A stretch of 64,000 bases of DNA, taken from the NCBI GenBank assembly GCA_016210545.1, contig JACQTY010000103.1:194-64193 (forward strand), written 5' to 3'. Position 1 is the stretch's first letter. Each line of letters starts with the position of its first letter. The position numbers and the translations under genes were made by a program. The notes beneath the pieces are model-generated. The model searched no databases and had not been told where the DNA came from. It saw only the letters and a program-made list of their open reading frames with translations. Shown piece by piece: positions 4,136 through 40,679 of the stretch. Origin of the DNA: Chloroflexota bacterium. Lineage in GTDB: Bacteria; Chloroflexota; Dehalococcoidia; JACVQG01.

Positions 4136-4870
4136 CTAGGCAGCTACGCCGCCCTTGCATTTTGCCGTCGGGACCAGGCCGCCGAAGCGGCGTTGCCTCT
4201 GGCTGTAGGCGCGAATAGCATCCTCGATCTCTTCCTCATCGAAGTCCGGCCAGTAGGTTGGAGTGGCATAGTATTCGCTATAGGCAGCTTGCCACAGAAG
4301 GAAGTTGCTCAAACGCAACTCTCCGCCAGTGCGAATGATAAGGTCCGGGTCGGGCAGCCCCGCCGTGAAGAGATAGCTAGCAAAAAGCTTTTCATCTATG
4401 CTCTCCGGCGGCGCCTTCTCTTCGATGAGCCGCCGCACTACACCAAGGATTTCCGCCCGTCCACCGTAATTGAACGCCAGGCTAAGGGTAATGTTAGTGT
4501 TGTGACGGGTAAGCTCTACGGCTTCCTTCACCTGGCGGACGAGGTGAGAAGAAAGCCCGTCCGTAGTACCCAGGTGGCGGATATGCACCCCCCTCTCGTG
4601 GAGGGCGCGCGTTTCTCTTTGGATGACCTGCCCCAGCAATCGGAAGAGGCCGTTGACCTCGGACCTGGGCCGGCTCCAGTTCTCAGTGGAAAAGGCATAC
4701 AGCGTAAGATACTTCACGCCGCGACCGGCAAAAGCATCGATGACCCTTCGGATGTTCTCGGTGCCCGCCCGGTGTCCCTCGACACGCGACAGGCCCCTCT
4801 GCTTGGCCCAACGGCCATTTCCATCCATTATTATGGCCACGTGTTGCGGGACCGTGGATATACTGGCCAT
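4136..4870 (-). CDS. uppS: undecaprenyl diphosphate synthase (isoprenyl transferase)
   Basis: HVAIIMDGNGRWA and YAFSTENWSRP motifs. The start was chosen at the internal Met (MASISTV...) to avoid overlap with the upstream acyl-CoA dehydrogenase. Confidence 0.88.
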   Translation of the reverse strand: MASISTVPQHVAIIMDGNGRWAKQRGLSRVEGHRAGTENIRRVIDAFAGRGVKYLTLYAFSTENWSRPRSEVNGLFRLLGQVIQRETRALHERGVHIRHLGTTDGLSSHLVRQVKEAVELTRHNTNITLSLAFNYGGRAEILGVVRRLIEEKAPPESIDEKLFASYLFTAGLPDPDLIIRTGGELRLSNFLLWQAAYSEYYATPTYWPDFDEEEIEDAIRAYSQRQRRFGGLVPTAKCKGGVAA

Positions 4871-4910
4871 GTCTTCTTGCGACGCGGCTCCTTGCTTCTT
4901 GATGGCGTTC

Positions 4911-6056
4911 CTAGGGTGCACCTATCTCCCGCCCAATGACTATGTGCTGGATTTCAGAAGTGCCCTCGGTAATAGTGTAGAGTCGGGCATCCCGATAGTA
5001 GCGCTGGACGGGCGAGTCCATCATGTAGCCGTAGCCTCCGTGGATTTCCATGGCCTCGCTGGTAATGTCCACCACCACTTCGCTGGCAAACAGTTTGGCC
5101 ATGGATGCCTCTTTCAGGCAGCGACGTTTCTGGTCATGCATCCAGGCGGCATAGTAGGTCAGCCAGCGGGCCGCCTCCAGTTGCGTCGCCATGCGGGATA
5201 GCTTGAAGCCGATCGCCTGGAATTTGCCTATCGGTTGGCCGAACTGCACCCGTTCAGAGGCATACTTCAGGGATGCCTCGTAGGCAGCCTGGGCCACACC
5301 CAGACTGCGACCGGCGTGGGAAATGCGACCGCCGTCGAGGGTCTCCATCACGTAACGGAACCCTTTACCCTCCTCACCGACCAGGTTACTCGCCGGCACC
5401 CGGCAGTTATCAAATACCAGTTCCGCAGTCCCGCCGGACCTGTTGCCCAGCTTCTCCATTTTGCGGGATACGGTAAAGCCCGGCGTCCCCTTCTCCACGA
5501 CAAATACGCTCACCCCTTTGCCGGGGCCTTTGCTCCTGTCCGTGTAGGCCGCAACGCAGACGAAATCGGCGTAGGGGCCGTTGGTGATGAATATCTTTGT
5601 GCCGTTGATGATATAATGGTCCCCGCTCCTCACGGCCTTCGTTTGCATGTTGGCGGCATCGGAGCCGGCATTGGCCTCGGTCAACCCGAAGGCAGAAATC
5701 TTCAGCCCCCTGATAGCGGGCGACAGATACTTCTGTTTTAGCTCCTCGCTGCCGTGGTCAGCGATCATTGAAGTGCCCAGTCCTGAGTGGACCATGACAG
5801 CAGAGGCAATCCCGCCCGATATGCGGGCCACCTCCTCCAGCAAGATACATTCGCTCAGTTTGCCCAGTTCAGCGGCGCCATACTTGGCTGAATACCGGGC
5901 GCAGATATAACCCAGTTCCCCCATCTTGGGGAACAGGCCCGGGGGGAAAATCTCGGTAGCCTCTGCCTCGTCCACCAGCGGCGCTATTTCCTTTTCACAG
6001 AAGCTCCGCACCGCCTGCTGAAACATCTTGTGTTCTTCTGACAGGTCAAAGTCCAT
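4911..6056 (-). CDS. acyl-CoA dehydrogenase
   Basis: 381 aa with the ACAD fold signatures GLTEANAGSD and YTITEGTSEIQ (C-terminal catalytic Glu region). Confidence 0.85.
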   Translation of the reverse strand: MDFDLSEEHKMFQQAVRSFCEKEIAPLVDEAEATEIFPPGLFPKMGELGYICARYSAKYGAAELGKLSECILLEEVARISGGIASAVMVHSGLGTSMIADHGSEELKQKYLSPAIRGLKISAFGLTEANAGSDAANMQTKAVRSGDHYIINGTKIFITNGPYADFVCVAAYTDRSKGPGKGVSVFVVEKGTPGFTVSRKMEKLGNRSGGTAELVFDNCRVPASNLVGEEGKGFRYVMETLDGGRISHAGRSLGVAQAAYEASLKYASERVQFGQPIGKFQAIGFKLSRMATQLEAARWLTYYAAWMHDQKRRCLKEASMAKLFASEVVVDITSEAMEIHGGYGYMMDSPVQRYYRDARLYTITEGTSEIQHIVIGREIGAP

Positions 6057-6065
6057 GCAATATCC

Positions 6066-6638
6066 CTAGCTTTCCAAAAGCTCAGCTTCTTTTTGTTGGC
6101 CGACCTTGTTGACATCCACCGTATGACTGTCAATCAGCTTTTGCAGCGCGTCCGTCGAGCGCTTGAGTTCATCGGTCGATATCGTCTTGGCTTTCTCCAT
6201 CTGCCGCAGTTCCTCCAGGGAATCGCGGCGGATGTTTCTCAGTTCTACCCTGGCTTGCTCAAGCCTCCTGTTTACCAAACGCGTCAATTCCAACCTCCTC
6301 TCCTCTGTGAGGGAAGGGATAGTCAGACGAATAACGGCGCCGTCGCTACTCGGCGTCAGACCCAAATCCGACTTGAGGATGGCCTTCTCGATACTTCCCA
6401 CCACGGTCCGCTCCCAGGGCTGGATGACCAGTAGCCGGGACTCAGGCGCAGATATGGCAGCGATCTGGTTGAGCGGCGTGGGGATGCCATGATAGTCCAC
6501 GCGGAGATGTTCAACCAGAGCCGGGGTAGCCCGGCCGGTACGGATACCGGCCAGTTCGCGGCGCAACGCGTCTATGGCCTTGCGCATCTGTACTTCAGTC
6601 TGGACGAGAACATCCTTGCTGGTCTTAATCTGACTCAT
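6066..6638 (-). CDS. frr: ribosome recycling factor
   Basis: About 190 aa from the internal Met MSQIKTSKD. Typical RRF coiled-coil sequence (VDYHGIPTPLNQIA...IRRD) at the expected position relative to tsf. Confidence 0.9.
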   Translation of the reverse strand: MSQIKTSKDVLVQTEVQMRKAIDALRRELAGIRTGRATPALVEHLRVDYHGIPTPLNQIAAISAPESRLLVIQPWERTVVGSIEKAILKSDLGLTPSSDGAVIRLTIPSLTEERRLELTRLVNRRLEQARVELRNIRRDSLEELRQMEKAKTISTDELKRSTDALQKLIDSHTVDVNKVGQQKEAELLES

Positions 6639-6640
6639 AG

Positions 6641-7168
6641 CTACTTCCTTGCAGCCTTCAGGCCAAAATGCCATTCGCACCACAGGGTCTCAAAGTATTT
6701 TTCCGGAGGACAAAAATTGCAGGTTACCTTGATGCGCGGGTCAAAGGTCTCAGCAAAGCTGTCGAAATACCCCTGCTCCACGCCCTTGCAACTGAAAACG
6801 CCCACGCCCGCCTTCAGCCTCTCTTGCTGGGAGGAGCACTTCAGGACTTGCAACACGGCTTCGCGTTCCGATATTTGTTCTATGCGCAGGTCGCCCCATA
6901 GCGTCCATGTGGGGGCCAGTTTCAGGGCCTTGACCACCGCCGCGATGCCATTCCCATCCACTTTGAAATTCGCTTTGACCTGGCTGGCCTCTACTTTCCC
7001 AAATCTCCGCCACACCTGCTCGTCCACCTTTATGGCATTCTCTACCCCGAATTGTTTCTCCATGCCGATGAACCAGTAGCCGTCGATGCGAAGCGTGTTG
7101 CGAAGTGCGTCGTTGAGCAGGGCCAGGATGGTCTCCCGTGGAAGCTGGGACATTTCTTCCCACTTCAT
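6641..7168 (-). CDS. hypothetical protein with a Cys-rich C-terminus, at the locus where pyrH is expected
   Basis: ORF with a strong SD (AAGGAGGTGGAG) 5 nt before the ATG at 7168. C-terminal CNFCPPEKYFETLWCEWHF. No UMP-kinase motifs. Confidence 0.5.
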   Translation of the reverse strand: MKWEEMSQLPRETILALLNDALRNTLRIDGYWFIGMEKQFGVENAIKVDEQVWRRFGKVEASQVKANFKVDGNGIAAVVKALKLAPTWTLWGDLRIEQISEREAVLQVLKCSSQQERLKAGVGVFSCKGVEQGYFDSFAETFDPRIKVTCNFCPPEKYFETLWCEWHFGLKAARK

Positions 7169-7965: not shown

Positions 7966-8754
7966 CTACGCTGCCTTCTCATCATCCGGAGCAAAGGATA
8001 AGGTCTCCGCGGGTTGGCCAGCCACGGCGGCCGCAACCTGGGCCGTCGCCCCCTCCCGAGCTGCCTTACCTTCAAGGACCGCATCCGCCATCTTACTGGT
8101 AACAAGTTTCACGGCCCTGATAGCGTCATCGTTGGCCGGAATGATGTAATCGATAGGGTCGGGATCGCAGTTCGTGTCTACGATGGCTACGACAGGCACC
8201 TTCATTCGTTTCGCCTCGGCCAGAGCAATCTTCTCCTTGGTGGGGTCGACGATGTAAAGGGCCGACGGGGGCGCGGTCATTTCCTTGAATCCACCCATCA
8301 TGAGGTTCAGCCGTCGGATCTCCTCCTGCAACTTCAGGTTTTCCTTCTTCGGCAGGCGTTCCAATTCGCCCTTGGCCAATTGGTCCTCCAGCCGGACAAG
8401 GTAATCGATCCGCCCCTGGATGGTGGCAAAATTGGTCAGCATACCACCCAGCCAGCGCACATTGACATGAAACATGCTGCAGCGCTTCGCTTCGTTTTGG
8501 ACCGCTTCCTGGGCCTGCTTCTTGGTGCCTACGAACAAGATAGTGCCGCCGTCAGCTACAAGCTCTCGCACGAAGGCCATAGCTTTCCCCAGCATCCCGA
8601 GAGTCTGCTCCAAATCAATAATGTGAATTCCGTTGCGCTGGGTGAAGATGTACCGCTTCATCTTCGGGTTCCAGCGACTCGTCTGGTGACCGAAATGCGC
8701 TCCCGCCTCCAAAAGCTCCTTTATAGATACGGCGGGTACCGTCTGCTGTGTCAT
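7966..8754 (-). CDS. rpsB: 30S ribosomal protein S2
   Basis: Internal start [32 protein letters not shown] and the IVDTNCDPD motif. The upstream 27 codons of the ORF are likely non-coding. Confidence 0.9.
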
Positions 8755-8785
8755 TGGCTCCTTTCTGCCTGTCCGTATTAGTGTA

Positions 8786-10222
8786 CTACAGGATATACCT
8801 GCTGAGGTCGTCATCCGCGACCAGGCCCCCGACATGCTGGTCTACGTAGTTCTTGTCCACTACAATAGTCTGTCCGGCCATCTCCGGGGCCGAGAAATTG
8901 AGCTCTTCCAGCGCCTTTTCCATTATGGTGTATAGACGCCGGGCGCCTATGTTCTCAACTCTTTCGTTCATCAAGGCGGCCAGCCGCGCCACTTCGTCAA
9001 TGGCATCCTCGGCGAAGACCAGATCTATCCCTTCTGTCTTCAACAGGGCCTGATATTGTTTGGTAAGCGCGTTCCTGGGTTCGACGAGTATCCTCTTCAG
9101 GTCTTCCTGGCTGAGAGGCGACAGCTCCACGCGGAGCGGGAACCGTCCCTGTAGCTCAGGAATAAGGTCTGCCGGCTTACTCTGATAGAACGCACCAGCA
9201 GCGATGAAAAGTACGTGCTCCGTCTTGACCGGGCCGAAACGAGTCATGACCGTCGTGCCCTCTACTATGGGCAAGAGGTCCCTTTGCACACCCTCTCCGG
9301 ATACGTCCCGCCCCACTTCGACACGCGGCCCAGCCAGCTTGTCCAGTTCGTCGATAAAGACTACGCCGTTTTCCTCTACATGGTCTATGGCGCTGTCTAC
9401 GACATCGTCAAAGTCCACCAGACGATTGGCCTCTTCCCTCGTCAGAATGCGGCGGGCGTCCTTTACCGCGACCTTCCTCCATCGCCTTTCTTTTGGATAG
9501 CTACGGTGCGACGTAAGAAGCCCATAGTTGTCGGACATATCCCCGAAGGAATCAGCTGTGTCCTCCGGGTTCAGCCGGAGGTCTGGAGGTCCCGGCTCTT
9601 CATACTCCACACCTACCTCTATGTCCAGGAGCTGGTCCTCTAGTTGTTTGGCCTTCACCAGATTCGCCACGAACTGCCTGTACCGGTAAGGACGCCTCTT
9701 TGTCTTCAGACTGGTCTTATCCGCAATCAGAGACGTCCTCGGCTCTTCAACGCCGAGGGACTTCACGCCTTCAGCCCGGACGGCTGCTTTGGCCACCCCC
9801 CTTGGCCATTGCTGGCACAAGTAGTCTACGATCCTTTCGGTGGCTAGTTTCTCTGCCTTAAGCTCTACGTCCTTGAGCTTCCTGTCATACCCCCGGGTTA
9901 CCGCGGCCTCTACCAGGTCAGTGATAATAGATTCCACGTCCCTGCCAACATACCCCACTTCAGTGAACTTGGTCGCCTCTACCTTGGTGAAAGGTGCATC
10001 TATGAGAGCAGACATCCGCCGCGCGATCTCAGTCTTGCCGACCCCGGTAGGCCCTATCATCAGGATGTTCTTCGGCATAACGTCCTGCCTTAGCTCCGGT
10101 GATAAATGACGGCGTCTCTCCCTGTTCCGTAGGGCTATGGCAACCACTTTCTTCGCCTGGCTCTGCCCTACAACATACTTATCAAGCTCTCTTACAATAG
10201 CTTTGGGAGTAAGGTTATCCAT
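8786..10222 (-). CDS. hslU: ATP-dependent protease ATPase subunit HslU
   Basis: Start at [20 protein letters not shown]. Walker [10 protein letters not shown], an intermediate domain and the C-terminal [13 protein letters not shown]...SRYIL. No hslV ORF lies in the adjacent 200 bp. Confidence 0.9.
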
Positions 10223-12365: not shown

Positions 12366-13982
<1,617 letters not shown>

Positions 13983-15552: not shown

Positions 15553-17034
15553 TTGAGACAAATTAAGAAGGTACTCCTCATCAACCCCCCCTGGTACCGG
15601 CTTTTCGGTGAGGAGTCACCCAGTTCCCCTTTGGGGCTTTGCTATATCGGCGCCGTACTGGAACAAAACGGGTACGACGTAGCGATCTACAATGGCGATT
15701 TCTCCAAATCTGGCATTGGGTTGCCCTCGGCTACCAAGAAGACCACGATGTACGAGACCTACCTTCATGCCCTGCAGGACCCCGGCCACTCCATCTGGAG
15801 TGAGGTACGTGCCGTGGTCTCCCAGCAGAAGCCTGACGTGGTAGGCATCTCCCTTCGCACCTCGGCCTATGGCTCCGCCATAAACGTGAGCCGCATTGTA
15901 AAGGAACTGGACCCCACCATACCTGTAATATGGGGGGGCGCCCACCCTACCGTTCTGCCTGGCGAGGCAATCAACAACGCCAACGTAGACATCGTAGTAC
16001 GCGGCGAGGGTGAGAACACAGTCCTGGACATTTTAAGAAGCAGGGATAACCTGGAGAGTGTCCCCGGGATTACATACAAGAAAGATGGTCGGATTATTCA
16101 CAACCCGGACCGCGCCCTCATCCCCAACCTCGATGAGTTGCCCTTTCCCGCGCGCCACTTGATACTAGACTGGCAAAGCTGTCCTCCGGAAGCCTTGGGA
16201 AACATCTTCGCAACCCGCGGCTGCCCCTACGATTGCGTCTTCTGCGCCTCTCACAAAGTATGGAGCCGCAAGGTAAGGTACAGGTCAGCAGCCAATATCA
16301 TCGCCGAGCTTCAACACCTGCAGCAGAAGTTCGGTGTCCGCCAGTTCTCTTTTGAGGACGACAGCTTCACCGTGAACAAGAAGCTGGTCAGCGAATTCTG
16401 CAGCGGGCTCCTGAAGGCTGGATTGAAGATCAGGTGGAGATGCGAGACCAGGGTGGACCTCGTTACCAGGGAACTCGTAGAGCAGATGAAAGGGGCGGGA
16501 TGTGAGGAGATATTCCTGGGCCTGGAATCGGGCAGCCCTGAGACCTTGCGCCGATTAAAGAAGGGTATCACCGTTGAGCAGATGAATACGGCGGCGGGCG
16601 TTTTGCGGCAATCTGGTATACGCTTCAGCGCCTTCTTCATGATCGGGTTCCCCTGGGAGACAATGAAAGAGATAAACGAGACCCTGACGCTGATGAAGGA
16701 GTTGGACCCCTTTGCCATAAACCTGAGCATCGCCACTCCTTATCCCGGGACGGAGTTGCATAAGATATGTATCGAGGAGGGCGTGGTCTCGGGGAACATG
16801 GACTGGAGCACCTTTTTCCATCAGAGCCCCGATATGTTCTTCTCCAATAAGTTCTCGCGTCAAGAAGTCAAAGAGATTATCAAGAAAGCTCAGTTGATAG
16901 TTGAGCGGCATAACCGCATCAAGAAGCGGCAACTGGTCCTGTTCGAGCCGCTCTACGTGGCCAAGCGCGTCATCAAAGGCAGGTACTATTACCCCAAACG
17001 TCTGTGGAGTCTACTACGTTACATATCAGGTTGA
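15553..17034 (+). CDS. B12-binding domain radical SAM protein (class B rSAM), paralog 1
   Basis: TTG start. N-terminal cobalamin-binding Rossmann-like region (LLINPPWY...VVGISLRT...WGGAHPT...VVRGEGE). Radical SAM cluster motif GCPYDCVFC, and FLGLESGS and IGFPWET. Closest to paralog 4. Confidence 0.85.
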   Translation: MRQIKKVLLINPPWYRLFGEESPSSPLGLCYIGAVLEQNGYDVAIYNGDFSKSGIGLPSATKKTTMYETYLHALQDPGHSIWSEVRAVVSQQKPDVVGISLRTSAYGSAINVSRIVKELDPTIPVIWGGAHPTVLPGEAINNANVDIVVRGEGENTVLDILRSRDNLESVPGITYKKDGRIIHNPDRALIPNLDELPFPARHLILDWQSCPPEALGNIFATRGCPYDCVFCASHKVWSRKVRYRSAANIIAELQHLQQKFGVRQFSFEDDSFTVNKKLVSEFCSGLLKAGLKIRWRCETRVDLVTRELVEQMKGAGCEEIFLGLESGSPETLRRLKKGITVEQMNTAAGVLRQSGIRFSAFFMIGFPWETMKEINETLTLMKELDPFAINLSIATPYPGTELHKICIEEGVVSGNMDWSTFFHQSPDMFFSNKFSRQEVKEIIKKAQLIVERHNRIKKRQLVLFEPLYVAKRVIKGRYYYPKRLWSLLRYISG

Positions 17035-17086
17035 CGCCATCAGGACCGACCACGATCATGAGAGACATGTCAACGACCAGGAACGG

Positions 17087-19486
17087 ATGAACTTGCTCAA
17101 GACCTTCATACTGTTATCGATCGCGGCTCTGCTATCCTCCTGCGCTGCCTTCCCCTGGCTACCACAGAGGCAGACATTGCCTCTTGGGAGACTGACGGGA
17201 AACGCCAAGGACGCCGGCTCCGCTAAGGACGGCATGAATCTCGGCATGGTCGTGGACCTTACCGGCCCGCTGGCATTGGCAGGTAAAGACGCTATTGCCG
17301 GAGCAGAACTTGCCATAGAGCAGCTAAACGAGGCCGGCGGCATCAAAGAGCAGCGGGTACGCCTTTTGGTGAGGGACGCAGGCGGTGCCAAAGCGGCGGC
17401 TCAAGCCCAGTCCTTGGTTAGCGATTACCAGGTATCTGGCATCATTGCACCCCTGTCCAGTAATGATGCCTACTCCATCGCTCAAGCCGTGGAAAGACGG
17501 GCACTGGTTTTCACCTACGTCGCCAATGCTGCTTACATGACCACCGAATGGGAGACCCCCAAGTCTCTGTTTCAGATCGGCCCGAGCGACTATATGGAGA
17601 GCAAAGCCCAGGCAGTGGACCTCTCGGGCCAGAAATATGGAAGGTACTTTGTGGTTGGCGCGGACACCGTTGAAAGCAGGGCTCGGGTGAGCGCCTTCGA
17701 GGAATGGCTAGCAAAGCTGCAGCCTGGCGTCACCTTCCTGGGAGCGATGTGGCTCTCCCCGGGACAACATGTCTATGGGGCCGCCATAGACAAGGCTCTA
17801 GCAGCTCAGCCAGACCTGGTTTACTCTACGCTTGAAGGCAGCGATCTGGAGGCTTTCACCCGGCAAGCGAAAGCACGGGGTTTTTTCGAAAGGGTGGCGT
17901 TTACAGCCCCCTACGACGTAGGTGTACTTCAATCATTGAAGAGCGACATGGTCTCAGGAGTCCGAGCCTACTCTCGGGCGCCATTCTTTGCGCTGAGCAG
18001 CGCGCCAGCCATGGCCTTTGTCCAAAGATACTGGGCCAACACCGGCAAATATCCTTCCGACGCTGCCGTTTTGGCGTATGAAGCAGCAAGGGTTTGGGCG
18101 CAAGTAGGTGCTAGCAGTGATTCCCTGAGCTGGAGTGACCTCCTGAGGGTGGCGGAGGGAATGAAGTTTGAATTCCTGATGGGCAGCGGGTATTTGCGGA
18201 GCCTGGACCACCAGAGTAGCCTCGGCTCGTTTGTCGGCTACACCCAGTGGAGCGACACATACGGGTTTATGACGTATCGTGGTCTCAAATACTTGTCCGC
18301 TGACGGTCTGTGGCGACCAGAGGGAGAGGTGAAAGAGATAAAAGAGCGGCCGCCAGCTAGCAAGTTGGCTATGGTCTCTGATATTTCCAAAGAGTTAGCT
18401 TCAGTTGTCAAAGACGCCGGCGCCGCAGCCGAGCTTGCCGTAGAGGAGATAAACAGAAATGGCGGTCTGCTGGCGCGGCAGGTGAAGTTAGTCCAGCAGG
18501 ATGCATCGGACGATGCCCAGAGGACCGCGGAGAAGTTGGAGGAGCTTATTATCGGTGGCGGGGTGTCGGCAGTCATCGGGCCAGTGAGCAATAGCACAGC
18601 GGCGCAAGTGATAGGCATTGCCAAGGTACGCGACGTAGCAATGTTTTTTAGCTACGCGAATAGCGAACGTCTCACGATGAAGTTGTACAACGAAAAGGTT
18701 TTCCAGGTAGGACCCAGTACGTATATGACCGGGCGTCTGCAAGCTCTGGCCCTTTCGGAAGAGAAATACACTCGCTATTATCTCCTGGGCCCCCGCATTG
18801 GAGCAGCCCAGGAGGAAGCGAACGCATTCAAGGAGTGGATGCAGAAACTAAGGCCCGACGTGAGATTCGTGGGCGAGGTCTGGCTGCCGATGGCTACTCA
18901 GGACTACGCGCCGGCAATCAACACGATATTGGCAGCCAGGCCCGAGATGGTCTATTCAAACTTACAGGGAGAGGACCTTGTCCGGTTTACACGCCAGGCA
19001 AAAAGCCAGAAGTTTTTTGAACAAGTAGCTTTTGCTGCTTCCTATGACGTGGGCGTACTTCAGGAGCTAAAGGGAGACATGCCCTCAGGGGTAAAAACGT
19101 TCGCCCGCGCCCCTTTCTTCGCCTCGGATGACCCGGGGCTAAAGCAGTTTGTAAACCAGTACCGTGCTCGGACATCTCTCTACCCTTCGGACGCAGCCGT
19201 ACTTACCTACCAATCGGTTATGCTGTGGGCATTTGCCGTAAGCAATGCCAATAGCGTTACCGGATATCATATAAGCCGGTTCCTGGGAGGAAGGCAATAC
19301 GCAAGCCTTTTCGGTCCCCGGATACTCCGATCCGTGGACCACCAGGAAAACGCAGGCATCTTTACGGGCTATACTGAGTGGAGTAACGAATACGGTTTCA
19401 TGGTCTTCAGGGACACGAAGTATCTTCCACCAGAAACTGTGTGGCGTTCGCCCGGAGAGGTTAGCGCCATCAGGCTAGCGCCTTAG
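17087..19486 (+). CDS. lipoprotein with two tandem type-1 periplasmic binding (LivJ/ANF-receptor-like) domains
   Basis: Start at MNLLKTFILLSIAALLSSCAAF (lipobox) after an AGGAA SD. The two halves are homologous, for example FTRQAKARGFFERVAFTAPYDVGVLQSLKSDMVSGV versus FTRQAKSQKFFEQVAFAASYDVGVLQELKGDMPSGV. Confidence 0.7.
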   Translation: MNLLKTFILLSIAALLSSCAAFPWLPQRQTLPLGRLTGNAKDAGSAKDGMNLGMVVDLTGPLALAGKDAIAGAELAIEQLNEAGGIKEQRVRLLVRDAGGAKAAAQAQSLVSDYQVSGIIAPLSSNDAYSIAQAVERRALVFTYVANAAYMTTEWETPKSLFQIGPSDYMESKAQAVDLSGQKYGRYFVVGADTVESRARVSAFEEWLAKLQPGVTFLGAMWLSPGQHVYGAAIDKALAAQPDLVYSTLEGSDLEAFTRQAKARGFFERVAFTAPYDVGVLQSLKSDMVSGVRAYSRAPFFALSSAPAMAFVQRYWANTGKYPSDAAVLAYEAARVWAQVGASSDSLSWSDLLRVAEGMKFEFLMGSGYLRSLDHQSSLGSFVGYTQWSDTYGFMTYRGLKYLSADGLWRPEGEVKEIKERPPASKLAMVSDISKELASVVKDAGAAAELAVEEINRNGGLLARQVKLVQQDASDDAQRTAEKLEELIIGGGVSAVIGPVSNSTAAQVIGIAKVRDVAMFFSYANSERLTMKLYNEKVFQVGPSTYMTGRLQALALSEEKYTRYYLLGPRIGAAQEEANAFKEWMQKLRPDVRFVGEVWLPMATQDYAPAINTILAARPEMVYSNLQGEDLVRFTRQAKSQKFFEQVAFAASYDVGVLQELKGDMPSGVKTFARAPFFASDDPGLKQFVNQYRARTSLYPSDAAVLTYQSVMLWAFAVSNANSVTGYHISRFLGGRQYASLFGPRILRSVDHQENAGIFTGYTEWSNEYGFMVFRDTKYLPPETVWRSPGEVSAIRLAP

Positions 19487-24617: not shown

Positions 24618-25796
24618 TTGAAAATCTTCATGGCCTGCGACCACCCGCTGCCGCCGGAGCTTTACGGAGGTATCCAGTACTATGTTCTGAAACTGGCGGA
24701 GGCCATGCAGCGGTCAGGCCACGAGCTGGAGGTATTCTCTCCAGTAAGGGACCCGTCGCGTTATCCGTTTCGCGTCAATGCTGTCAGACGTTATGGCATC
24801 CTGTTCGCTGAAGGCTCTTTGGCTGCTCTCAAGACATACCCCTTGGGCTACTTCAGGATGTTGCATAGCCTCCGAGGCAGCCTAAGCAACGGCAGCCGAT
24901 GCGATATTCTTCATGCCCACAATCCATTCATCTCCGGCAATGCCGGACGTCAGGTAATAAAAGAGACGGGGATACCGGCTGTCCTCACCTACTATGGCTG
25001 GGATACTGCAGAGAACCACCTGCAGCACAAGGGCCTTACGTGGACGGAAAGGCTGGCCCGCCTGAGTCTCAAGGGATACCGCAAGATTGTAGTCTACAAT
25101 GCGTTGACAAAGGTAGCCCTGCAGGAGCGGTTTGGGCTGATCCCGGGCGAAATCGAGGTGTTGCCGCTAGCCGTGGACACCGATTTCTTTCGGCCAGGTG
25201 TTTCTGGCGAGTGGGTGAGAGAAAAGTACGACATACCGCGTGACAGGCCGCTGGTACTGTTTCTGGGCAGCGTGGGGAAGCAGAAGGGCGTCCACGTGCT
25301 GATAGCCGCAGTAAAGGAGGCTCTGCAGAAAACCGACCTGTATCTCATGGTTGCTGGCAACGGGCCTTTTCTGGAGACTGCGAAAGAGATGTCCAGGACG
25401 ATGGGACTCGATAATCGTGTAACCTTCACTGGCGGCGTGCCCGAGGAAGACCTGCCCGCCTTTTTAAATGCCTGTGACATTTTTGTGAACCCCAGCCTCG
25501 ACGATTGCTACAGCCTTGTGGTACTGGAGGCCAGCGCCTGTGGCAAAGCGGTCATCGGCACCGACCACCCGATCATGGTTGAGGAGTACGCCGGACACGG
25601 CAATAGCGGCCATATCCTTCTCTGCCCCAGGGGCGACCACCGGAAGCTTTCCGGGGCGATATTACATCTGGTTGATAATCCCGATCTGAGACAGAACATG
25701 GGAAGAAAAGCAAGGGAAAAAGTAGAATCGAGGCACACGTTGACCAAGTATTGCGATAGCTTGTTGCAGATTTATGAAAAGGCTATAGGTAATTAG
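24618..25796 (+). CDS. glycosyltransferase family 4 (GT-B, retaining)
   Basis: EX7E-type motif region ...FVNPSLDDCYSLVVLEASACGKAVIGT... and N-terminal GGIQYYVLKLA. Confidence 0.8.
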   Translation: MKIFMACDHPLPPELYGGIQYYVLKLAEAMQRSGHELEVFSPVRDPSRYPFRVNAVRRYGILFAEGSLAALKTYPLGYFRMLHSLRGSLSNGSRCDILHAHNPFISGNAGRQVIKETGIPAVLTYYGWDTAENHLQHKGLTWTERLARLSLKGYRKIVVYNALTKVALQERFGLIPGEIEVLPLAVDTDFFRPGVSGEWVREKYDIPRDRPLVLFLGSVGKQKGVHVLIAAVKEALQKTDLYLMVAGNGPFLETAKEMSRTMGLDNRVTFTGGVPEEDLPAFLNACDIFVNPSLDDCYSLVVLEASACGKAVIGTDHPIMVEEYAGHGNSGHILLCPRGDHRKLSGAILHLVDNPDLRQNMGRKAREKVESRHTLTKYCDSLLQIYEKAIGN

Positions 25797-25798
25797 GC

Positions 25799-27232
25799 AT
25801 GAAGGTCCTTCTAATCAATCCCAACTACGTCACCCAGGTGTATGGAGAGGAGACTCTGGACTACTTGGTAGCGCCCCTCGGGCTGGCCTACGTAGCGGCA
25901 GTTCTCAAGCGAGACGGTGTGGACGTGAGCTTGCTAGAGGCTAATGCCCTCGGCCTGGGCATGGACGACATAGAAAAAGAGATCAAACGCCAGAAGCCGG
26001 ACCTGGTTGGCATTACGGGGACTACGCCCCTTATTGCCCGGGTAGAGGAAATCGCCCGGCGAGCCAAGTCGGCAGACAAGGGCATCAAAGTGGTGGTGGG
26101 CGGTCCCCACGCTACCATTCTTCCCCAGGAGGTGTTGAAAAGCCAGAACATCGACTTCTGTGTGCGCGGGGAAGGTGAAATCACTGCCCTCGAGCTTGTG
26201 AAGGCATTGGAAAAGGGCGGCGACTTTGGCGCCATTCTGGGGCTGGGATTCAAGAGCAACGGGCAGATCCACCTGAATGACAGCCGCCCGCTCATCAAAG
26301 AACTGGACAGTCTCCCATTCCCGGCCAGGGAGTTGCTCCCGATGGAAAAGTATATTTTCCCTCTTCCTACGGGTGCAGTGGCGCGGTTCACCAACCTCAT
26401 CTCAAGCCGGGGTTGCCCGTACCTTTGCACTTTCTGTGGGCAGCACAATATCTGGACGCGCCTGGTGAGGTTCAGAAGCCCGAAGAATGTTGTCGATGAG
26501 ATACAGGCAGTCAAAGACAAATACGGCGTCGCCTTTGTGGGTTTCACCGATAGCAACTTCCCGCTGAACCGCAAGATAACCATGGACATCTGTGACGAGA
26601 TGGCGGCGCGTGGGATCAAGATAAAGTGGGCCTGTGGCTCACGGGTGGACCTGGTAGACCAGGAATTGCTGAGAAAGATGCACAAGGCTGGATGTCAGCA
26701 GATCAACTTCGGCGTGGAGTCGGGAAACGCCGAGATCCTGAAGGGTTACAAGAAGGGCATCACCATTGACCAGGCCAAGACTGCCATAAAGCAGGCGAAG
26801 AAGGCCGGACTCAAGGTGTATACCTACTTCATGGTGGGGGGGCCGGGCGAAACCAGGGAGACGGCGGAGGAGACGATCAAGTTGGCCTAGAAACTCGACC
26901 CCGACTACGCCCAGTTCTCCGTTGCCACGCCATTTCCGGGGACGGAGCTATTTGAGATGGCCAACGCTGGGGGCGCGCTGGGGAGCTACGATTGGACTCA
27001 GTTCCTGACCTATCAGGCGCCCCTATTCGCTACGAAGAACCTTTCCGCAGCGGAGCTCGAGGAACTCAAGGCCAGAGCGTTCCGCAGCTTCTACCTCCGG
27101 CCGTCTCTGATGTTGAAGAAGGCACTGCAAATCAGGTCTTTGTCCGATATCAAGATTCTGGCCAAGGGGTTCCGTTTTGCTTTGAAGCTGGGTAAGGGGA
27201 AGGCAGCAGCGGCCGCGGCCAAAACATCCTAG
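25799..27232 (+). pseudogene. B12-binding radical SAM protein, paralog 2, interrupted by an in-frame TAG at 26888-26890
   Basis: GGPHAT and GCPYLCTFC motifs. The reading frame continues unbroken after the TAG as KLDPDYAQFSVATPFPGTELFEM..., which aligns to the paralogs (ELDPFAINLSIATPYPGTEL, VSPLWPMYSIVTPYPGTEL). The TAG sits where paralogs have Lys or Tyr (AAG/TAY), one substitution away. Intact length would be 477 aa. Confidence 0.65.
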
Positions 27233-27234
27233 TA

Positions 27235-27292
27235 GCATGTAACATTTACTTTTGATACTGGTGGCACAGGCGTCTCTGCCTGTGCAATGGCG
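27235..27292 (+). ncRNA. copy 1 of a conserved ~35-nt motif plus GC hairpin (unknown RNA/regulatory element)
   Basis: AGTAGCATGTAACATTTACTTTTGATACTGGTGGCAC followed by the hairpin GCACAGGC-gtctct-GCCTGTGC. Second copy at 58985-59043 has the same motif and a different but structurally equivalent hairpin. Confidence 0.4.
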
Positions 27293-28204
27293 AAAAATGC
27301 CCTGTTACAGCGTACTAGCAAGACGTCCGTCGGCTCAAGGCAAACTGCTGGAAGGAGTTGCACCCAAATAGAGAACAGCGATTCCAAAGGCGCCAGAAGA
27401 TTCGAGTTGGCCCAAGTCTGGGAGAAGGATTTCTGGGCAAACGTGTGGACGGACGACCGGGCCAGGCAGACCAAGGCCAGGTCATACTGGGAACACTACA
27501 TAGCCGTCCTCAAGGAGTACGCGCGTCTGAAGACGGACGACAGGGTGCTGGATGTGGGCTGCGGTCCCTTCGGCATGATCAGCTATCTCGCCCAGGGGCA
27601 GAGGTTTGGCCTGGACTCCTTGATGCACTTCTATCTGGCCAGTTTCGATATGGAGAAGGAGGTGACCTGGGCGAGCGGCGGCGCAGAGAGTTTGCCTTTT
27701 GATGACGCATTCTTCGATGTGGTTATATGTACAAACACTATAGACCATACACGGGTGCCACAAAGGGCGCTGGCCGAAATGAACAGGGTACTCAAGAGTG
27801 ACGGGGTTCTCTTCTTGACCGTGCATATCTACTCCCGGCGTGTGAGAACCGTCAAGGCGTTTCTGGAGAGAGTAGGTTGGGGAGACCCTCCACATCCCTA
27901 TTCGTTTAATGTCCCAGACGTAAAGCGCCTGTTAAGTGAGTCGGGCTTCAAGCTGACTGGCTTGAGACACGGCATCGGCAATCTGGATTTCTGGGTTGGG
28001 GGCGAGAAGACCGGAGACCCAAAAACTTTTGTCTCCAGGACCAGGGACTACGGCAACAGGGCCGTGGCAATTGGGAGAAGTAAGGGCGCCCGGGTACTGT
28101 TCAAAACACTGGTGAGGTTTGCCCTGCTCTTTTTGCTGATGGATACGCAGAGGTCAGCCGATACAATATTCCTGGCCAGGAAGAAAGCTAGCGCCTCCGT
28201 TTGA
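27287..28204 (+). CDS. class I SAM-dependent methyltransferase
   Basis: Motif I VLDVGCGPFG, an acidic motif II and motif III VLKSDGVLFLTVH. Confidence 0.75.
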   Translation: MAKNALLQRTSKTSVGSRQTAGRSCTQIENSDSKGARRFELAQVWEKDFWANVWTDDRARQTKARSYWEHYIAVLKEYARLKTDDRVLDVGCGPFGMISYLAQGQRFGLDSLMHFYLASFDMEKEVTWASGGAESLPFDDAFFDVVICTNTIDHTRVPQRALAEMNRVLKSDGVLFLTVHIYSRRVRTVKAFLERVGWGDPPHPYSFNVPDVKRLLSESGFKLTGLRHGIGNLDFWVGGEKTGDPKTFVSRTRDYGNRAVAIGRSKGARVLFKTLVRFALLFLLMDTQRSADTIFLARKKASASV

Positions 28205-32279: not shown

Positions 32280-33725
32280 TTGTTCAAGAGAGTTTTGTTT
32301 TGCGTCCCAGAATCGCCCAATATAGATAAGGATCCGCCTCAGATACCTCACATTGGCTTCGGGTATCTCATGGAGGTCCTTGACCAGCACCACATCGAAA
32401 ACGACGTGATCGACATGAGGCTGGGATACAAGTTTGCCGATGTAAAGAAGAAACTGGACAGCTTCAAGCCGGACCTGGTGGGCGTCACCATGTGGACATA
32501 CTACCACGAGCTGGCTTACGACCTCGTTAAGAAACTCAAGGCCGAGGGCTATACGGTGGTCGTGGGCGGCCCTCACGTATCAACCTTTGGCGGCGGCGTG
32601 CTCGAGGAATGTCAAGCGGACTTTGCCGTCAAGCATGAGGGCGAGTTTACCATCATGGACCTGTGCACCCGTAGCGATTGGGACAAGATTGAGGGCATCG
32701 CCTACCGCCGCGACGGGCATGTGATGGAGAACCCTGACCGGCCCCGCATCCACGACCTGGACAGCCTGCAATTTCCCAGGTATGCCAGGTTCGAGCTGCC
32801 CAGGTACGCCCGCAAGATGATCTCCATCGTGACGTCGAGGGGGTGCCCCTACAACTGCACCTTTTGCCCTATCAAGACCGTTCTGGGGAAGCTCTATGTG
32901 TTCCGCAGTGCGAAGAGTGTAGCCGAAGAGATAAATTACTGGTATGAACACGGCTACCGTGAACTGGACATCGTGGATGACAACTTTGCGGTGCGGCGAG
33001 AGCGGGTCTATGAGATATGCGATCTCCTGAAGGGAAAACATTTCAACTCCCTCAAGCTCGTTTGCTGCAATGGAATTCGGGCTGACCTGGTGGACGAGGA
33101 CATCCTCAAGCGCATGTACGAGGTTGGCTTCAGAGAGATAGCCTTTGGCGTGGAATCGGGGAACTCCCAGGTCTTGAAAACGGTCAAGAAAGCCGAGGAT
33201 GTTGCTCGCATAGAGAGAAGCATCGACGCTGCCTGCAAGCTGGGTTATGAAGTGACCCTGTTTTTCATCGTCGGCCTGCCGGGTGAGACGTTGGAGTCGC
33301 TGGAGGACTCGATAAAGCTGGCCTACAAATACCCCATAGCCAGGGCCAAATTCATGAACCTGGTGCCATTCCCGGCCACGGAACTGTTCGATTGGGCCGT
33401 AAAGAACAATTATCTTACAAAAGACCCCAAGGAGTATTTGAACCATATCGCCCATCACGAGTTCGAGCCTCTACTTTCCACTCCCGAGTACACTGTGGAG
33501 CAAAGGCGGAAGGGTCTGGCCCGAGCCAAGAAGGCGATGGCGGATATCAAGAAGCGGAGCGTGGCCCGGCAGCTCGGGAATAGCCCAGTTAGCCGGCTCA
33601 TGGCCAGTTTGATTTACTCGGGTCCGATACACGGGTTCATATTTGCCGTACTGAATACCAGCCCGCCTCTGCGCCGGCTGACAAACAAGGTATTGAACAG
33701 ACTGGGTCTGGTGTTCTATGAATAG
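32280..33725 (+). CDS. B12-binding domain radical SAM protein, paralog 3
   Basis: TTG start directly after the upstream TGA. GGPHVS and the CxxxCxxC motif GCPYNCTFC, FGVESGNS and IVGLPGET. Confidence 0.85.
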   Translation: MFKRVLFCVPESPNIDKDPPQIPHIGFGYLMEVLDQHHIENDVIDMRLGYKFADVKKKLDSFKPDLVGVTMWTYYHELAYDLVKKLKAEGYTVVVGGPHVSTFGGGVLEECQADFAVKHEGEFTIMDLCTRSDWDKIEGIAYRRDGHVMENPDRPRIHDLDSLQFPRYARFELPRYARKMISIVTSRGCPYNCTFCPIKTVLGKLYVFRSAKSVAEEINYWYEHGYRELDIVDDNFAVRRERVYEICDLLKGKHFNSLKLVCCNGIRADLVDEDILKRMYEVGFREIAFGVESGNSQVLKTVKKAEDVARIERSIDAACKLGYEVTLFFIVGLPGETLESLEDSIKLAYKYPIARAKFMNLVPFPATELFDWAVKNNYLTKDPKEYLNHIAHHEFEPLLSTPEYTVEQRRKGLARAKKAMADIKKRSVARQLGNSPVSRLMASLIYSGPIHGFIFAVLNTSPPLRRLTNKVLNRLGLVFYE

Positions 33726-33842: not shown

Positions 33843-35351
33843 GTGCTTGAAAGGGCAACGATGAAGGGCAGTTCAATAAAGAAAGTTCTACTAATTAATC
33901 CTCCGTGGTACAGAATATTCGGTGAAAGTATGTATAACAATCCTTTGGGGATATCCTATTTAGCTGGCGTGCTAGAGCAGAGTGGCATAGAGGTATCAAT
34001 CTATAATCCGGACATTGTTACCAGAGGTAAGAAATCCACGGATGAGAGTCGTATTCCCAAATACCATACCTACATAAATACCCTGCGTAGTCTGGAGCAT
34101 CCGTTGTGGAGCGAGGTTGAAACCGTAATTGCTCGACATCAGCCCGACCTTGTAGGTATCACTGTGATGACGGCCAGATACGGATCAGCATTGAACGTGA
34201 GCAAGATTGTGAAGAGGCTGTCTAAAGACGTGCCGGTTGTATGGGGCGGGATACACCCTACAATCATGGCAGATGACTGTTTGAAACACCCTGAAGTGGA
34301 CGTAGTCGTAAGAGGCGAAGGGGAATACGTTTTCAAGAACCTAGTAGAACACTTCGGACAGTTCGGTAGTATGGCCGGAATCTCCTACAGAGATGGCACC
34401 AAGTTCGTGCACAATCCTCCAATGCCATTAATTCACAATCTGGACAGCCTGCCGTTCCCCGCCAAGCACCTCATTGTTGACAAAGAAAAAATGCCAAGGG
34501 AGAGTTTCGGGAACATATTGGGTGCTAGGGGCTGCCCTTTCGATTGCATATTCTGTGGAGCGCACCTCATCTGGTCCCACAAGGTAAGACATCGTTCCCC
34601 AGAGAATGTTGTCAGAGAAATAAGGGAGACGAAAAACAATTTCAGAACTAACTACTTTGTCTTTGAAGATGATACCTTTACCGTGAACAAGAAATATGTA
34701 TTGGCGTTGTGTGACCTTCTGATAAAAGAGAGGATGCGTATACTGTGGAGTTGTAAGACGAGGGCTGACCTGATCAGTGATGATTTGATTGCTAAAATGA
34801 GGGAAGCGGGCTGCGATTCAATCGAAATCGGGATCGAATCAGGCAGTGACGAGACACTACAAAAGATGAAAAAGGGCATCACTACAGAACAGGTGGTTCT
34901 GGCAAAGGCGCTCTTGGAAAAATATAAGATAAAAATGGAGTCAGGCTTCATGTTTGGTTTCCCATGGGAAACCAAAGAAGACTTCCAAGAAACGACTGCC
35001 TTTATGAAAAAGGTGTCTCCATTGTGGCCTATGTACAGCATCGTTACACCCTACCCGGGTACTGAGCTTTACGACATGGCAGTTGCCCAGCGCCTCATCC
35101 CTGATAACCCGGATTGGAGCACGTTTTACCCTGAAAGAGAAGGCGGATACCTATCGAAGGGCGTACCACAGGATGAAGCAGAGAAAGTTTTCTCTCAGAT
35201 TGAAAAGGAGTTCACCCAATATACAAGAAGGCAAAAGAGGAGAATCCTTCTTTCGCACCCCTGGTACGTCTTTCTAAGGACCAAGAATACGGGCTATTTT
35301 AACATACGCACCATATGGAGTTTCCTCAGGAAATACCTTTGGGTTAAGTAG
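33843..35351 (+). CDS. B12-binding domain radical SAM protein, paralog 4 (low-GC copy)
   Basis: VLLINPPWYRIFGE..., GGIHPT and GCPFDCIFC. Closest to paralog 1 but encoded with AT-rich codons (about 45% GC versus about 60% in the flanks). Confidence 0.85.
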   Translation: MLERATMKGSSIKKVLLINPPWYRIFGESMYNNPLGISYLAGVLEQSGIEVSIYNPDIVTRGKKSTDESRIPKYHTYINTLRSLEHPLWSEVETVIARHQPDLVGITVMTARYGSALNVSKIVKRLSKDVPVVWGGIHPTIMADDCLKHPEVDVVVRGEGEYVFKNLVEHFGQFGSMAGISYRDGTKFVHNPPMPLIHNLDSLPFPAKHLIVDKEKMPRESFGNILGARGCPFDCIFCGAHLIWSHKVRHRSPENVVREIRETKNNFRTNYFVFEDDTFTVNKKYVLALCDLLIKERMRILWSCKTRADLISDDLIAKMREAGCDSIEIGIESGSDETLQKMKKGITTEQVVLAKALLEKYKIKMESGFMFGFPWETKEDFQETTAFMKKVSPLWPMYSIVTPYPGTELYDMAVAQRLIPDNPDWSTFYPEREGGYLSKGVPQDEAEKVFSQIEKEFTQYTRRQKRRILLSHPWYVFLRTKNTGYFNIRTIWSFLRKYLWVK

Positions 35352-38150: not shown

Positions 38151-39014
38151 ATGGGGACGAGGTGGGGGAAAGTTAAAGTTGACATATCGCAGGTCTACGC
38201 GGAAGTAACAAGTTGCGCTTCGTCCTTCCCCGAGGTAGAGGCTGTGCTTCTCTTTGGTTCTCGCGCTCGCCAGGAGGAAACCCCTCTGAGTGATGTGGAC
38301 CTGGCCTATCTCCTGGAAAAGGGGTTGGCGCCGTCTACCGAGGCAGAGATAGACACAAAGCTCTACAATGGGATAAGCCGAATCCTGGGCACTGATGAGA
38401 TAACACTATTAGACCTCGGTAAAGCTCCTCTTTCCATAGCCTTCTCTGTGTTTCAGGAGGGGAGGGTGTTGTTCTCCCGGAATCCCCAAAGGTTGGCGGC
38501 TCTTCAGGAACGAACGTTGATTCTCTATCCTGAAATCCACCGGTTCAGGACTGAAACGCTCGCCGAGTTTGAGAGGAGCTTAAAGGGGGGGCAGATGGAT
38601 GTCTCGCGGGAGAGAATCCTTTATTACTTGCGCTTCGTCAAAGAAGAGGTAACCAGATTGAAAGAACTGGCAAACCTAACCAAAGAGGAGTATCTCGCCA
38701 ACAGCGATAGCCAGATAGTGGCCGAGAGAAGATTTCAGAGAGCCGTGGAAAGCTGTCTCAACATAGGCAATCATATTATCTCCAAACAGGGACTAAGGCT
38801 GGCTGAGGATTATGCATCCGTGTTTAGGGTCCTGGCTGAGTCTCACATCATATCCGGGAAACTTGCTGAGCGGATGTCTGATATGGCCAGGTTCAGGAAT
38901 CTCCTGGTCCACGTCTACTGGAATATTGACCACGAAAAGATATATGAGCAGATGCCTGAAAGAATCAGCGCCCTGGACTCTTTCATAGATGAAATCCACA
39001 CATTTATTACTTAG
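38151..39014 (+). CDS. fused minimal nucleotidyltransferase (MntA-like) - HepT/DUF86 (HEPN) protein
   Basis: N-terminal LLFGSRARQEETPLSDVDLAYLL (GS...D.D Pol-beta NTase motif). C-terminal RFRNLLVHVYWNIDHEKIY (Rx4HxY HEPN motif). About 50% GC versus about 60% upstream. Confidence 0.7.
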   Translation: MGTRWGKVKVDISQVYAEVTSCASSFPEVEAVLLFGSRARQEETPLSDVDLAYLLEKGLAPSTEAEIDTKLYNGISRILGTDEITLLDLGKAPLSIAFSVFQEGRVLFSRNPQRLAALQERTLILYPEIHRFRTETLAEFERSLKGGQMDVSRERILYYLRFVKEEVTRLKELANLTKEEYLANSDSQIVAERRFQRAVESCLNIGNHIISKQGLRLAEDYASVFRVLAESHIISGKLAERMSDMARFRNLLVHVYWNIDHEKIYEQMPERISALDSFIDEIHTFIT

Positions 39015-39180
39015 CGCAGCTAGAGTTTTGAAGATCGGGAACAGACGGTTGACGAAAGAGCGCTTTATTGAGGATAGCTCCCTGGCCCTGGTGCCAGTGG
39101 GAATATCACTGGACATAGATACGGAGATGGATATTCTCATGGCCGAAGTATTGCTCGCGGCGAGGAGGAAAGCAGGATGA
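38989..39180 (+). pseudogene. C-terminal remnant of a second NeuA/PseF-like cytidylyltransferase
   Basis: Translation ...RVLKIGNRRLTKERFIEDSSLALVPVGISLDIDTEMDILMAEVLLAARRKAG* aligns to the C-terminus of the 37310-38008 product (...AVYVVGRDWLMAKDWLIGDNSLAFVMAPERSLDIDTEMDLVIAEAFLRGRPG*). Its TGA overlaps the ATG of radical SAM paralog 5 (ATGA). Confidence 0.6.
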
Positions 39181-40679
39181 AAGTGCTGCTCATCCAGCCC
39201 CCCCACGATTTTTGCGGCACGGGACGGCCCCCTGCCTTTTTCCCTTCGGGGCTTGGTTACATTGCTCAACAGATACTCAGCGCTGGCCACGAGGTGCAGG
39301 TACTTGAGATATGGGCCAATGGTCTCATCCAGGACCGAGTACTAGAAGAAATAGACAAGGCCAAGTATGACTTGGTTGGCATAAGCGCCCACTCCAGCCA
39401 GTATGCCTATGTGAAGTGGCTAAGTGCCGAACTCAAGAAGAGGAGCAGCAGCCCTGTAATATTGGGGGGTGCGCTAGCCACCCTGACCCCAGAGATTGTC
39501 CTCGAGCATTCCTGTGTGGATATTTGCGTGGTCAGCGAAGGTGAGGAAACCGTTACTGAATTGTTAGAAAAGCCGGACAGTCTGGATAAGACAGCAGGCA
39601 TATATTTCAAGGATGCAGCGGGGAAGATTCGCAAGGGACCAGTCAGGGCCTATACTAAAGACCTGGATGCTACTCCTTTCCCCGCCTGGGATTTCTTCCC
39701 AATGGACGTATATCTGGCTAACTGCACAGTTCCCGGGCAGAGCCATTTGAAAGCGATTAATGTTATCGCTGGCCGGGGTTGCCCTTATAGCTGCCACTTC
39801 TGCTCTAAGACTTTTACTGGAGCCCGTTTTCGGTCAGTGGACAATATTATGAAAGAGGTCTTGGCGCTGAAGGAAAAGTATGGCATAAAGGGCCTCTTCT
39901 TCGCCGATGAGCTATTGCTTATCAATAAGAGGCGGGTATATGAGCTGTGTGAGGCTATAGAGCCCCTGGGGCTGAAGTGGTATTGTCAGGGACGGGTCAA
40001 CCTGGTAGACTATGAACTTCTGAAACGCATGAAGAAAGCGGGCTGCGTTTCCGTAGGCTATGGCGTGGAATCAGGTAGCCAGACTATCCTGGATAACATG
40101 AAGAAGGAGACAACTGTCGAACAGGGTATCCAGGCGCTTAAGGTTACGGCCAAGGTAGGCCTTCGTGCAGTAGTACAGATGATGTATGCCTACCCCGGCG
40201 AGAATCAGCGGACTGTCCAGGAGACAGTAGATTTTTTCAAGAAAGCGCCGCACGCGGGTTGGATGGCTTTTTCGATTACCACCCCACTGCCTGGCACTCA
40301 ATTGTGGCAAGATGCCATTGACAAAGGCATCATATCGAACGAAGAGAGTTTCCTGGAACGGATGGCGGGAGGCCACAATCCTCGGGCCGAACATGCCAAC
40401 CTTAGCGATCTGACAGAGGATGAGTTCGCTCCTTTACTGCGGCGAGCGCAGAACCAGATCCTGGTCAACTCAATACTCAGACATCCTCTGCTTTCTATGA
40501 GATATACATTTTCGGACACTGTTCACTATGTACGTCGCTTTGGAGCTAAGAAAACATTGGGGGCAGTTTGGGACAGAATAACCATCTTGTTCCCCAAGTT
40601 GAGAATACGCCGCCGCGGAAGTGAAGAAAGCTGTAGCCTCCCTGTGCCTGTCAAAATCAAAGAGGATAACCGGTCGTAG
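39177..40679 (+). CDS. B12-binding domain radical SAM protein, paralog 5
   Basis: MKVLLIQPP..., GGALAT and GCPYSCHFC, YGVESGS. C-terminal extension of about 100 aa. Confidence 0.85.
   Translation: MKVLLIQPPHDFCGTGRPPAFFPSGLGYIAQQILSAGHEVQVLEIWANGLIQDRVLEEIDKAKYDLVGISAHSSQYAYVKWLSAELKKRSSSPVILGGALATLTPEIVLEHSCVDICVVSEGEETVTELLEKPDSLDKTAGIYFKDAAGKIRKGPVRAYTKDLDATPFPAWDFFPMDVYLANCTVPGQSHLKAINVIAGRGCPYSCHFCSKTFTGARFRSVDNIMKEVLALKEKYGIKGLFFADELLLINKRRVYELCEAIEPLGLKWYCQGRVNLVDYELLKRMKKAGCVSVGYGVESGSQTILDNMKKETTVEQGIQALKVTAKVGLRAVVQMMYAYPGENQRTVQETVDFFKKAPHAGWMAFSITTPLPGTQLWQDAIDKGIISNEESFLERMAGGHNPRAEHANLSDLTEDEFAPLLRRAQNQILVNSILRHPLLSMRYTFSDTVHYVRRFGAKKTLGAVWDRITILFPKLRIRRRGSEESCSLPVPVKIKEDNRS

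Follow-up and report, generated by a model that had tools for sequence, protein, structure and literature searches.

The question raised by this locus is whether a gene for a radical SAM enzyme that is interrupted by an in-frame amber codon is truly broken, has been altered only in the assembled record, or is decoded in some unorthodox manner. The gene lies on the plus strand of a 64-kb stretch of Chloroflexota DNA, the whole of which was analysed here (the window), and its reading frame, opened by the ATG at 25799, meets a TAG at 26888-26890 (local sequence GCC TAG AAA, 26885-26893), beyond which the frame remains open for 113 more codons and closes with the terminators TAG TAG (27230-27235). 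An earlier note on this DNA had observed that the frame of 25799-26890 runs past the TAG to 27232, and our read-through translation of 477 aa confirms it. The window belongs to a contig (65,369 in length, locus-tag prefix HY671) of an NCBI metagenome-assembled genome (MAG) labelled Chloroflexi/Chloroflexota bacterium, and in GenBank the locus is given as two separate CDS, with no pseudogene flag. The reading we favour, and consider likely, is that of a recent lysine-to-stop nonsense allele which is real, which segregates in the population and whose product is probably inactive. The coordinates of the features discussed are collected in Table 1.

Table 1. Window coordinates of the disrupted gene, its intact paralogs, the positions that distinguish it from the intact allele, and example genes ending in TAG.
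Feature	Position	Strand	Description
Disrupted B12-binding radical SAM gene, 5' part	25799-26890	+	363 codons and premature TAG; GenBank MBI4287973.1, 'radical SAM protein'; from ORF list and Pfam
Premature amber codon K364*	26888-26890	+	AAG to TAG by A-to-T at 26888; AAG in L001, L005 and L006
In-frame 3' remnant	26891-27232	+	Codons 365-477 and normal TAG; second TAG at 27233-27235
91-codon ORF from Met387	26957-27232	+	Begins at ATG 26957; GenBank HY671_06070, hypothetical protein, MBI4287974.1
Intact paralog 1	15553-17034	+	493 aa, 36% identity; Lys at stop column
Intact paralog 3	32280-33725	+	481 aa, 33% identity; Tyr at stop column
Intact paralog 4	33843-35351	+	502 aa, 35% identity; Lys at stop column
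Intact paralog 5	39177-40679	+	500 aa, 36% identity; Lys at stop column
Difference from intact allele	26888		Window T, Logan A; TAG / AAG
Difference from intact allele	26971		Window G, Logan A; GGG / GGA, synonymous, Gly391; outgroup GGA
Difference from intact allele	27097		Window C, Logan T; CTC / CTT, synonymous, Leu433; outgroup TTT, same third-position T
Example TAG-terminated genes	7966-8835; 6066-6683; 12366-13982; 4136-4921	-; -; +; -	

The read-through product comprises a B12-binding domain (PF02310, residues 20-133, E 7e-30) and a Radical_SAM domain (PF04055, residues 201-363, E 6e-33), and the three cysteines of its CxxxCxxC motif (C206, C210 and C213) are invariant, as expected for a member of the B12-binding-domain radical SAM enzymes. 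Four paralogs reside within the same 64-kb window at 33-36% identity (BLASTP), and the five-way alignment runs on past the stop through a conserved PxPGTEL motif, as the earlier note had claimed in aligning the continuation with the C-termini of the paralogs; its statement that the stop column is occupied by Lys in three of the four also holds (K, Y, K, K). Among solved structures the closest are AprD4 (6fd2), an aminoglycoside 1,2-diol dehydratase, and MgmA (9ccb), the methylase of an MCR glutamine, and then TsrM, OxsB, CysS and TokK. The match to 6fd2 reaches E 9e-33 by sequence and a TM of 0.75 by Foldseek, and both AprD4 and MgmA align across and beyond the stop site. In common with the class B-like B12-binding radical SAM enzymes, the family displays an N-terminal Rossmann domain of the B12-binding type, a CxxxCxxC core and a C-terminal helical region; unlike them, the window allele ends at residue 363 and has no equivalog assignment. 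All matches to NCBIfam equivalogs (BchE, HpnJ, HpnR, AprD4, MgmA and others) fall far below the curated cut-offs, with none of the five radical SAM paralogs passing any of these (the best being BchE, at 256 bits against 481), and an exact look-up of paralog 3 returned no match.

The identity of the ancestral codon can be approached through the orthologs. The closest of these (P0001, 480 aa) is full length at 86% identity and has Lys at the site, the codon in the relative L001 being AAG; of the six contigs on which it occurs, four were examined (L001-L004, each from a different sample), and these share synteny with the window and do not differ from one another within the gene. The remaining orthologs have either Arg (P0002, 467 aa, 79% identity; P0004, 469 aa, 56% identity) or Lys (P0005, 470 aa, 45% identity). 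Among 59 aligned sequences, the intact allele included, the stop column is Lys in 43, and every one of the 58 aligned homologs keeps 97-145 residues after the stop position, with P378, P380 and T382 invariant. The site thus has the form expected of a nonsense pseudogene, with a sense codon in the orthologs that lies one substitution away, and the ancestral codon was AAG (Lys).

The stretch that follows the stop is family sequence rather than a chance open frame, because it is identical (100%) in protein to residues 365-477 of an intact allele (P0123, described below) and approximately 85% identical to the ortholog P0001, and because the family-invariant P378, P380 and T382 are present in it. 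Measured against the ortholog, dN amounts to 0.077 for the part 5' of the stop and to 0.080-0.098 for the part 3' of it; dN alone was compared, the synonymous sites between the window and the sole ortholog with DNA being saturated (pS about 0.8). As these values are about equal, the tail was under the same purifying selection for nearly all of its history, and no further stops or frameshifts and no relaxation of constraint were found in it. The lesion is very recent, younger than the strain-level split. As a separate matter, the window gene has a GC3 of 0.74, against 0.52 for its counterpart in L001 (10001-11443), and approximately 80% of synonymous sites differ despite the 86% protein identity; these figures point to a strong compositional shift between the window and L001 lineages.

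The intact allele is a protein of 477 aa (P0123) that is identical to the read-through product and has Lys364, and it was found in the 90%-identity protein cluster of the 91-aa fragment encoded downstream of the stop. It is encoded in two independent Logan assemblies, SRR12113390 (L005) and SRR12113401 (L006), which differ from window positions 24681-28172 at three sites in total, with both runs agreeing on all three; at each of these (26888, 26971 and 27097) the Logan allele has the base of the outgroup ortholog, and the state of the window is derived. A further five Logan contigs of these runs (L007-L011) bring the comparison to 12,926 window positions and the differences to four overall, the fourth being an Asn/Asp change in a methyltransferase at 36356, on which both runs again agree. 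Since only 4 of these 12,926 bases differ, the MAG and the two runs sample the same species-level population and in essence one strain, at approximately 3 differences per 10,000 bases. The stop is unfixed, two other runs carrying AAG, and this refines what the earlier note had proposed. The neighbouring accession SRR12113421 belongs to the Modesto (California) groundwater data set (He et al. 2021), and from the proximity of the accessions we infer that SRR12113390 and SRR12113401 come from the same project.

It might be argued that the true codon in the window genome is AAG also, and that the T at 26888 arose during assembly or through the mixing of strain variants in the consensus. Such an artefact would accord with the AAG of two independent assemblies from the same population, and with the fact that the TAG product is on record from one NCBI MAG contig only. 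The 363-aa product corresponds exactly to P0003, from an NCBI Chloroflexi MAG, and its exact look-up gave no record in the contig index; no Logan or JGI assembly yielded the TAG allele, and a 39-nt pattern with N at 26888 gave no match in the GTDB species genomes or the JGI metagenomes, so that neither allele occurs there. However, the MAG also differs at two other positions in the same 210 bp, and at a third 9.5 kb away (36356), with both runs agreeing, which is the pattern of a distinct haplotype. Given that the TAG allele is accompanied by two linked derived synonymous SNPs in 210 bp, we take it to represent a real haplotype and not a single base-call error. Furthermore, L006 ends in a Nextera adapter, a sign of Illumina data, in which consensus substitution errors are rare, and the T must exist in some reads, as assemblers invent no bases. 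We therefore consider an artefact of sequencing, assembly or consensus unlikely, and retain it as a minor alternative; the earlier note had allowed more room for a lone sequencing error than the two linked derived SNPs would suggest. Its suggestion of a very recent nonsense mutation within a redundant family is the one we favour, with AAG in the intact allele and no further decay, and of the codons (AAG or TAY) from which it had derived the stop by a single substitution, AAG is substantiated by both the ortholog and the near-identical intact allele.

Of the four positions that separate the MAG from the Logan contigs, three lie in a span of 210 bp, at the premature stop or 3' of it. In a simulation that covered the first 5,740 compared bases, clustering of this kind arose in approximately 0.4% of cases. 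A simple point mutation has no power to explain this clustering, which could reflect a small recombination tract or a cluster of mutations.

A real amber codon need not be a terminating one, and programmed read-through or recoding (by pyrrolysine, a suppressor tRNA or a code in which TAG is a sense codon) would yield the full-length enzyme, in agreement with a frame that is perfectly preserved past the stop. TAG is, however, the commonest stop codon in the window: the 56 long ORFs of the window end in 30 TAG (54%), 15 TGA and 11 TAA, and by our count TAG ends 26 of the 49 Pfam-supported genes, including those for ribosomal protein S2 (rpsB) and RRF (frr), groEL and uppS. The gene's own terminator is TAG TAG. 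In bacteria TAG is normally the rarest stop, and its predominance is unusual; the relative L001 (GC 49%) employs TGA 10, TAG 6 and TAA 3 times. Furthermore, the in-frame TAG is not conserved among close relatives, as alleles of approximately 99.9% identity and the 86% ortholog all have the plain Lys codon AAG. A tRNA scan of the 64-kb window found none and an Rfam scan no family, and neither pyl genes, tRNA(CUA) nor methylamine methyltransferase genes were found within it. Last, the RNA of 26880-27010 (131 nt around and after the TAG) is less stable than shuffled controls (z = +1.49), and no stimulatory RNA structure downstream of the premature stop was detected. The sole likeness to the pyrrolysine (UAG) system is an in-frame UAG in a conserved gene, whereas here TAG is the dominant stop, the sister allele has Lys AAG and the window offers no pyl or methylamine methyltransferase context. 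With TAG as the principal terminator of this DNA, amber read-through is set aside as extremely improbable, in agreement with the earlier note, which had placed it last among its options. As TAG is the preferred terminator in the lineage, in-frame TAG codons should not be taken for recoding.

There are two weaker forms of this proposal. Partial read-through, mediated by a suppressor tRNA or pyl genes elsewhere or by near-cognate decoding, might supply a low level of the full-length enzyme and so act as a dimmer of glycan modification; in a milder variant, the nonsense allele may be kept as an on/off variant of the surface glycan under pressure from phage or grazers, with the excess of derived SNPs just past the stop marking a small recombination tract by which the allele passes from strain to strain. 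We regard these notions as very unlikely.

Other genes of the window were considered as candidates for nonsense-split pairs or read-through fusions and were rejected, the TAG-ended genes with long in-frame ORFs after them being distinct and separately annotated genes, such as frr and then an acyl-CoA dehydrogenase, or uppS and then cdsA. The other pairs of a TAG and an in-frame ORF are parted by other genes in the relative.

If the recent nonsense allele is translated only as far as its stop, the consequences for the protein can be gauged from an AF2 model of the intact allele (pLDDT 90.8, pTM 0.90). Residue 364 lies in a helix (353-366) that follows the strand carrying the GGPGET motif (339-346), and beyond this helix the model places a strand (370-375) and the helices 383-390, 417-432, 435-443 and 448-463; by the same secondary structure, the 3' remnant encodes the strand 370-375 and the C-terminal helices. 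We read helix 353-366 of the predicted fold as alpha5 and strand 370-375 as beta6, the sixth core strand. The beta6 region of the radical SAM fold contributes to SAM binding. The 363-aa product retains the B12-like domain, but its radical SAM core extends no further than helix 353-366, and the product loses strand 370-375, P378, P380 and T382 together with approximately 100 residues of C-terminal helices, such that the truncation takes away a conserved and structurally integral part. Because the next core strand and the C-terminal helices are lost, the 363-aa product is expected to be inactive, and to judge from conservation and the predicted structure the truncated allele is most probably null.

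An alternative fate for the two coding segments is a functional split enzyme, in which the 363-aa fragment would combine into an active protein with a 91-aa fragment translated anew from ATG 26957. This start is preceded by GGAG 9 nt 5' of the ATG, and PGAP called both ORFs. However, it is the first in-frame start after the premature TAG, with none earlier than Met387 available for re-initiation, so that residues 364-386 would be missing from both pieces, and with them strand 370-375 and the invariant P378, P380 and T382. There are no comparable natural splits among the 120 best database homologs, and the split is younger than the strain divergence, which amounts to approximately 3 differences per 10,000 bases. 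We give the split enzyme almost no credence. The 91-aa ORF is a by-product of the split and its annotation, and no independent gene.

The disrupted gene is situated within a long plus-strand cluster (approximately 15.5-47 kb) whose gene content is that of a surface-glycan pathway: family-4 glycosyltransferases, a 4,6-dehydratase, two DegT-type aminotransferases and a WbuC-like cupin, as well as NeuB, a PglD-like acetyltransferase, a CMP-sugar cytidylyltransferase, a CDP-alcohol phosphatidyltransferase and several SAM methyltransferases. From this context it is reasonable to suppose that the enzyme modifies a sugar or a lipid-linked intermediate by radical chemistry. We postulate that in a groundwater population of Chloroflexota a single A-to-T transversion changed Lys364 from AAG to amber in one of the five B12-binding-domain radical SAM paralogs, in a gene that lies in a surface-glycan biosynthesis cluster. 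The allele would be young and unfixed, with AAG kept by close genomes from samples elsewhere in the accession series, and translation would presumably end at the premature TAG, this being the organism's main stop codon. One step of glycan modification may thereby be lost in the strain, and polar effects upon the downstream genes may be envisaged, albeit speculatively. As the paralogs are only approximately 35% identical, it is improbable that any of them fully substitutes for the broken gene.

Radical SAM genes of this cluster differ between relatives. In L001, the interval from the 601-aa protein to the glycosyltransferase contains two additional radical SAM genes, and the methyltransferase of window positions 27287-28204 is absent. 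One of these two (L001 6312-7200) is what is left of a tandem copy of the neighbouring radical SAM gene (L001 7311-8777). Its similarity to that neighbour is confined to residues 1-106 and 302-488, at 67-68% identity and in two different frames, and the CxxxCxxC region is deleted. On sequence grounds we judge this remnant to be a genuine, older pseudogene of the same family. The gain and decay of radical SAM paralogs is evidently routine in the lineage, and the paralogs of the glycan cluster are gained and lost between relatives.

The phenomenon is of a known and ordinary kind. Like other segregating loss-of-function alleles in bacterial surface-polysaccharide clusters, it involves a single-base change from sense to stop in an accessory glycan gene with paralogs, in a frame that is otherwise intact; there is an intact allele in the same population, and the relative L001 contains an older decayed paralog. 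It differs from other nonsense-mutation pseudogenes in having been caught very early, with no secondary lesions. The allele would as such offer a clean example of loss of function caught segregating in a natural groundwater population, and its importance is small beyond the correction of the annotation and the caution regarding TAG. MBI4287973.1 and MBI4287974.1 are to be merged and flagged as one disrupted gene, and the 91-aa 'hypothetical protein' does not constitute a gene family, though it stands as a cluster representative.

Several minor observations accompany these results. MBI4287974.1 (91 aa) is the representative of its 90%-identity protein cluster, the other member being the intact 477-aa enzyme, and because the fragment represents the shared cluster, a homology search with the full-length query missed the intact allele. 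Within the glycan cluster, 38151-39014 (+) is a single ORF of 287 aa in which a nucleotidyltransferase domain of the Pol-beta type (MNT) is fused to a HepT/HEPN ribonuclease domain; MNT and HepT/HEPN pairs are normally two-gene toxin-antitoxin systems. Directly 5' of the glycan genes, an ORF of 861 aa (16901-19486, +) contains two tandem Peripla_BP_6 stretches and is conserved in L001. From the TTG listed as its start, this ORF shares 134 nt with the 3' end of paralog 1, and for this reason the true start is probably further downstream.
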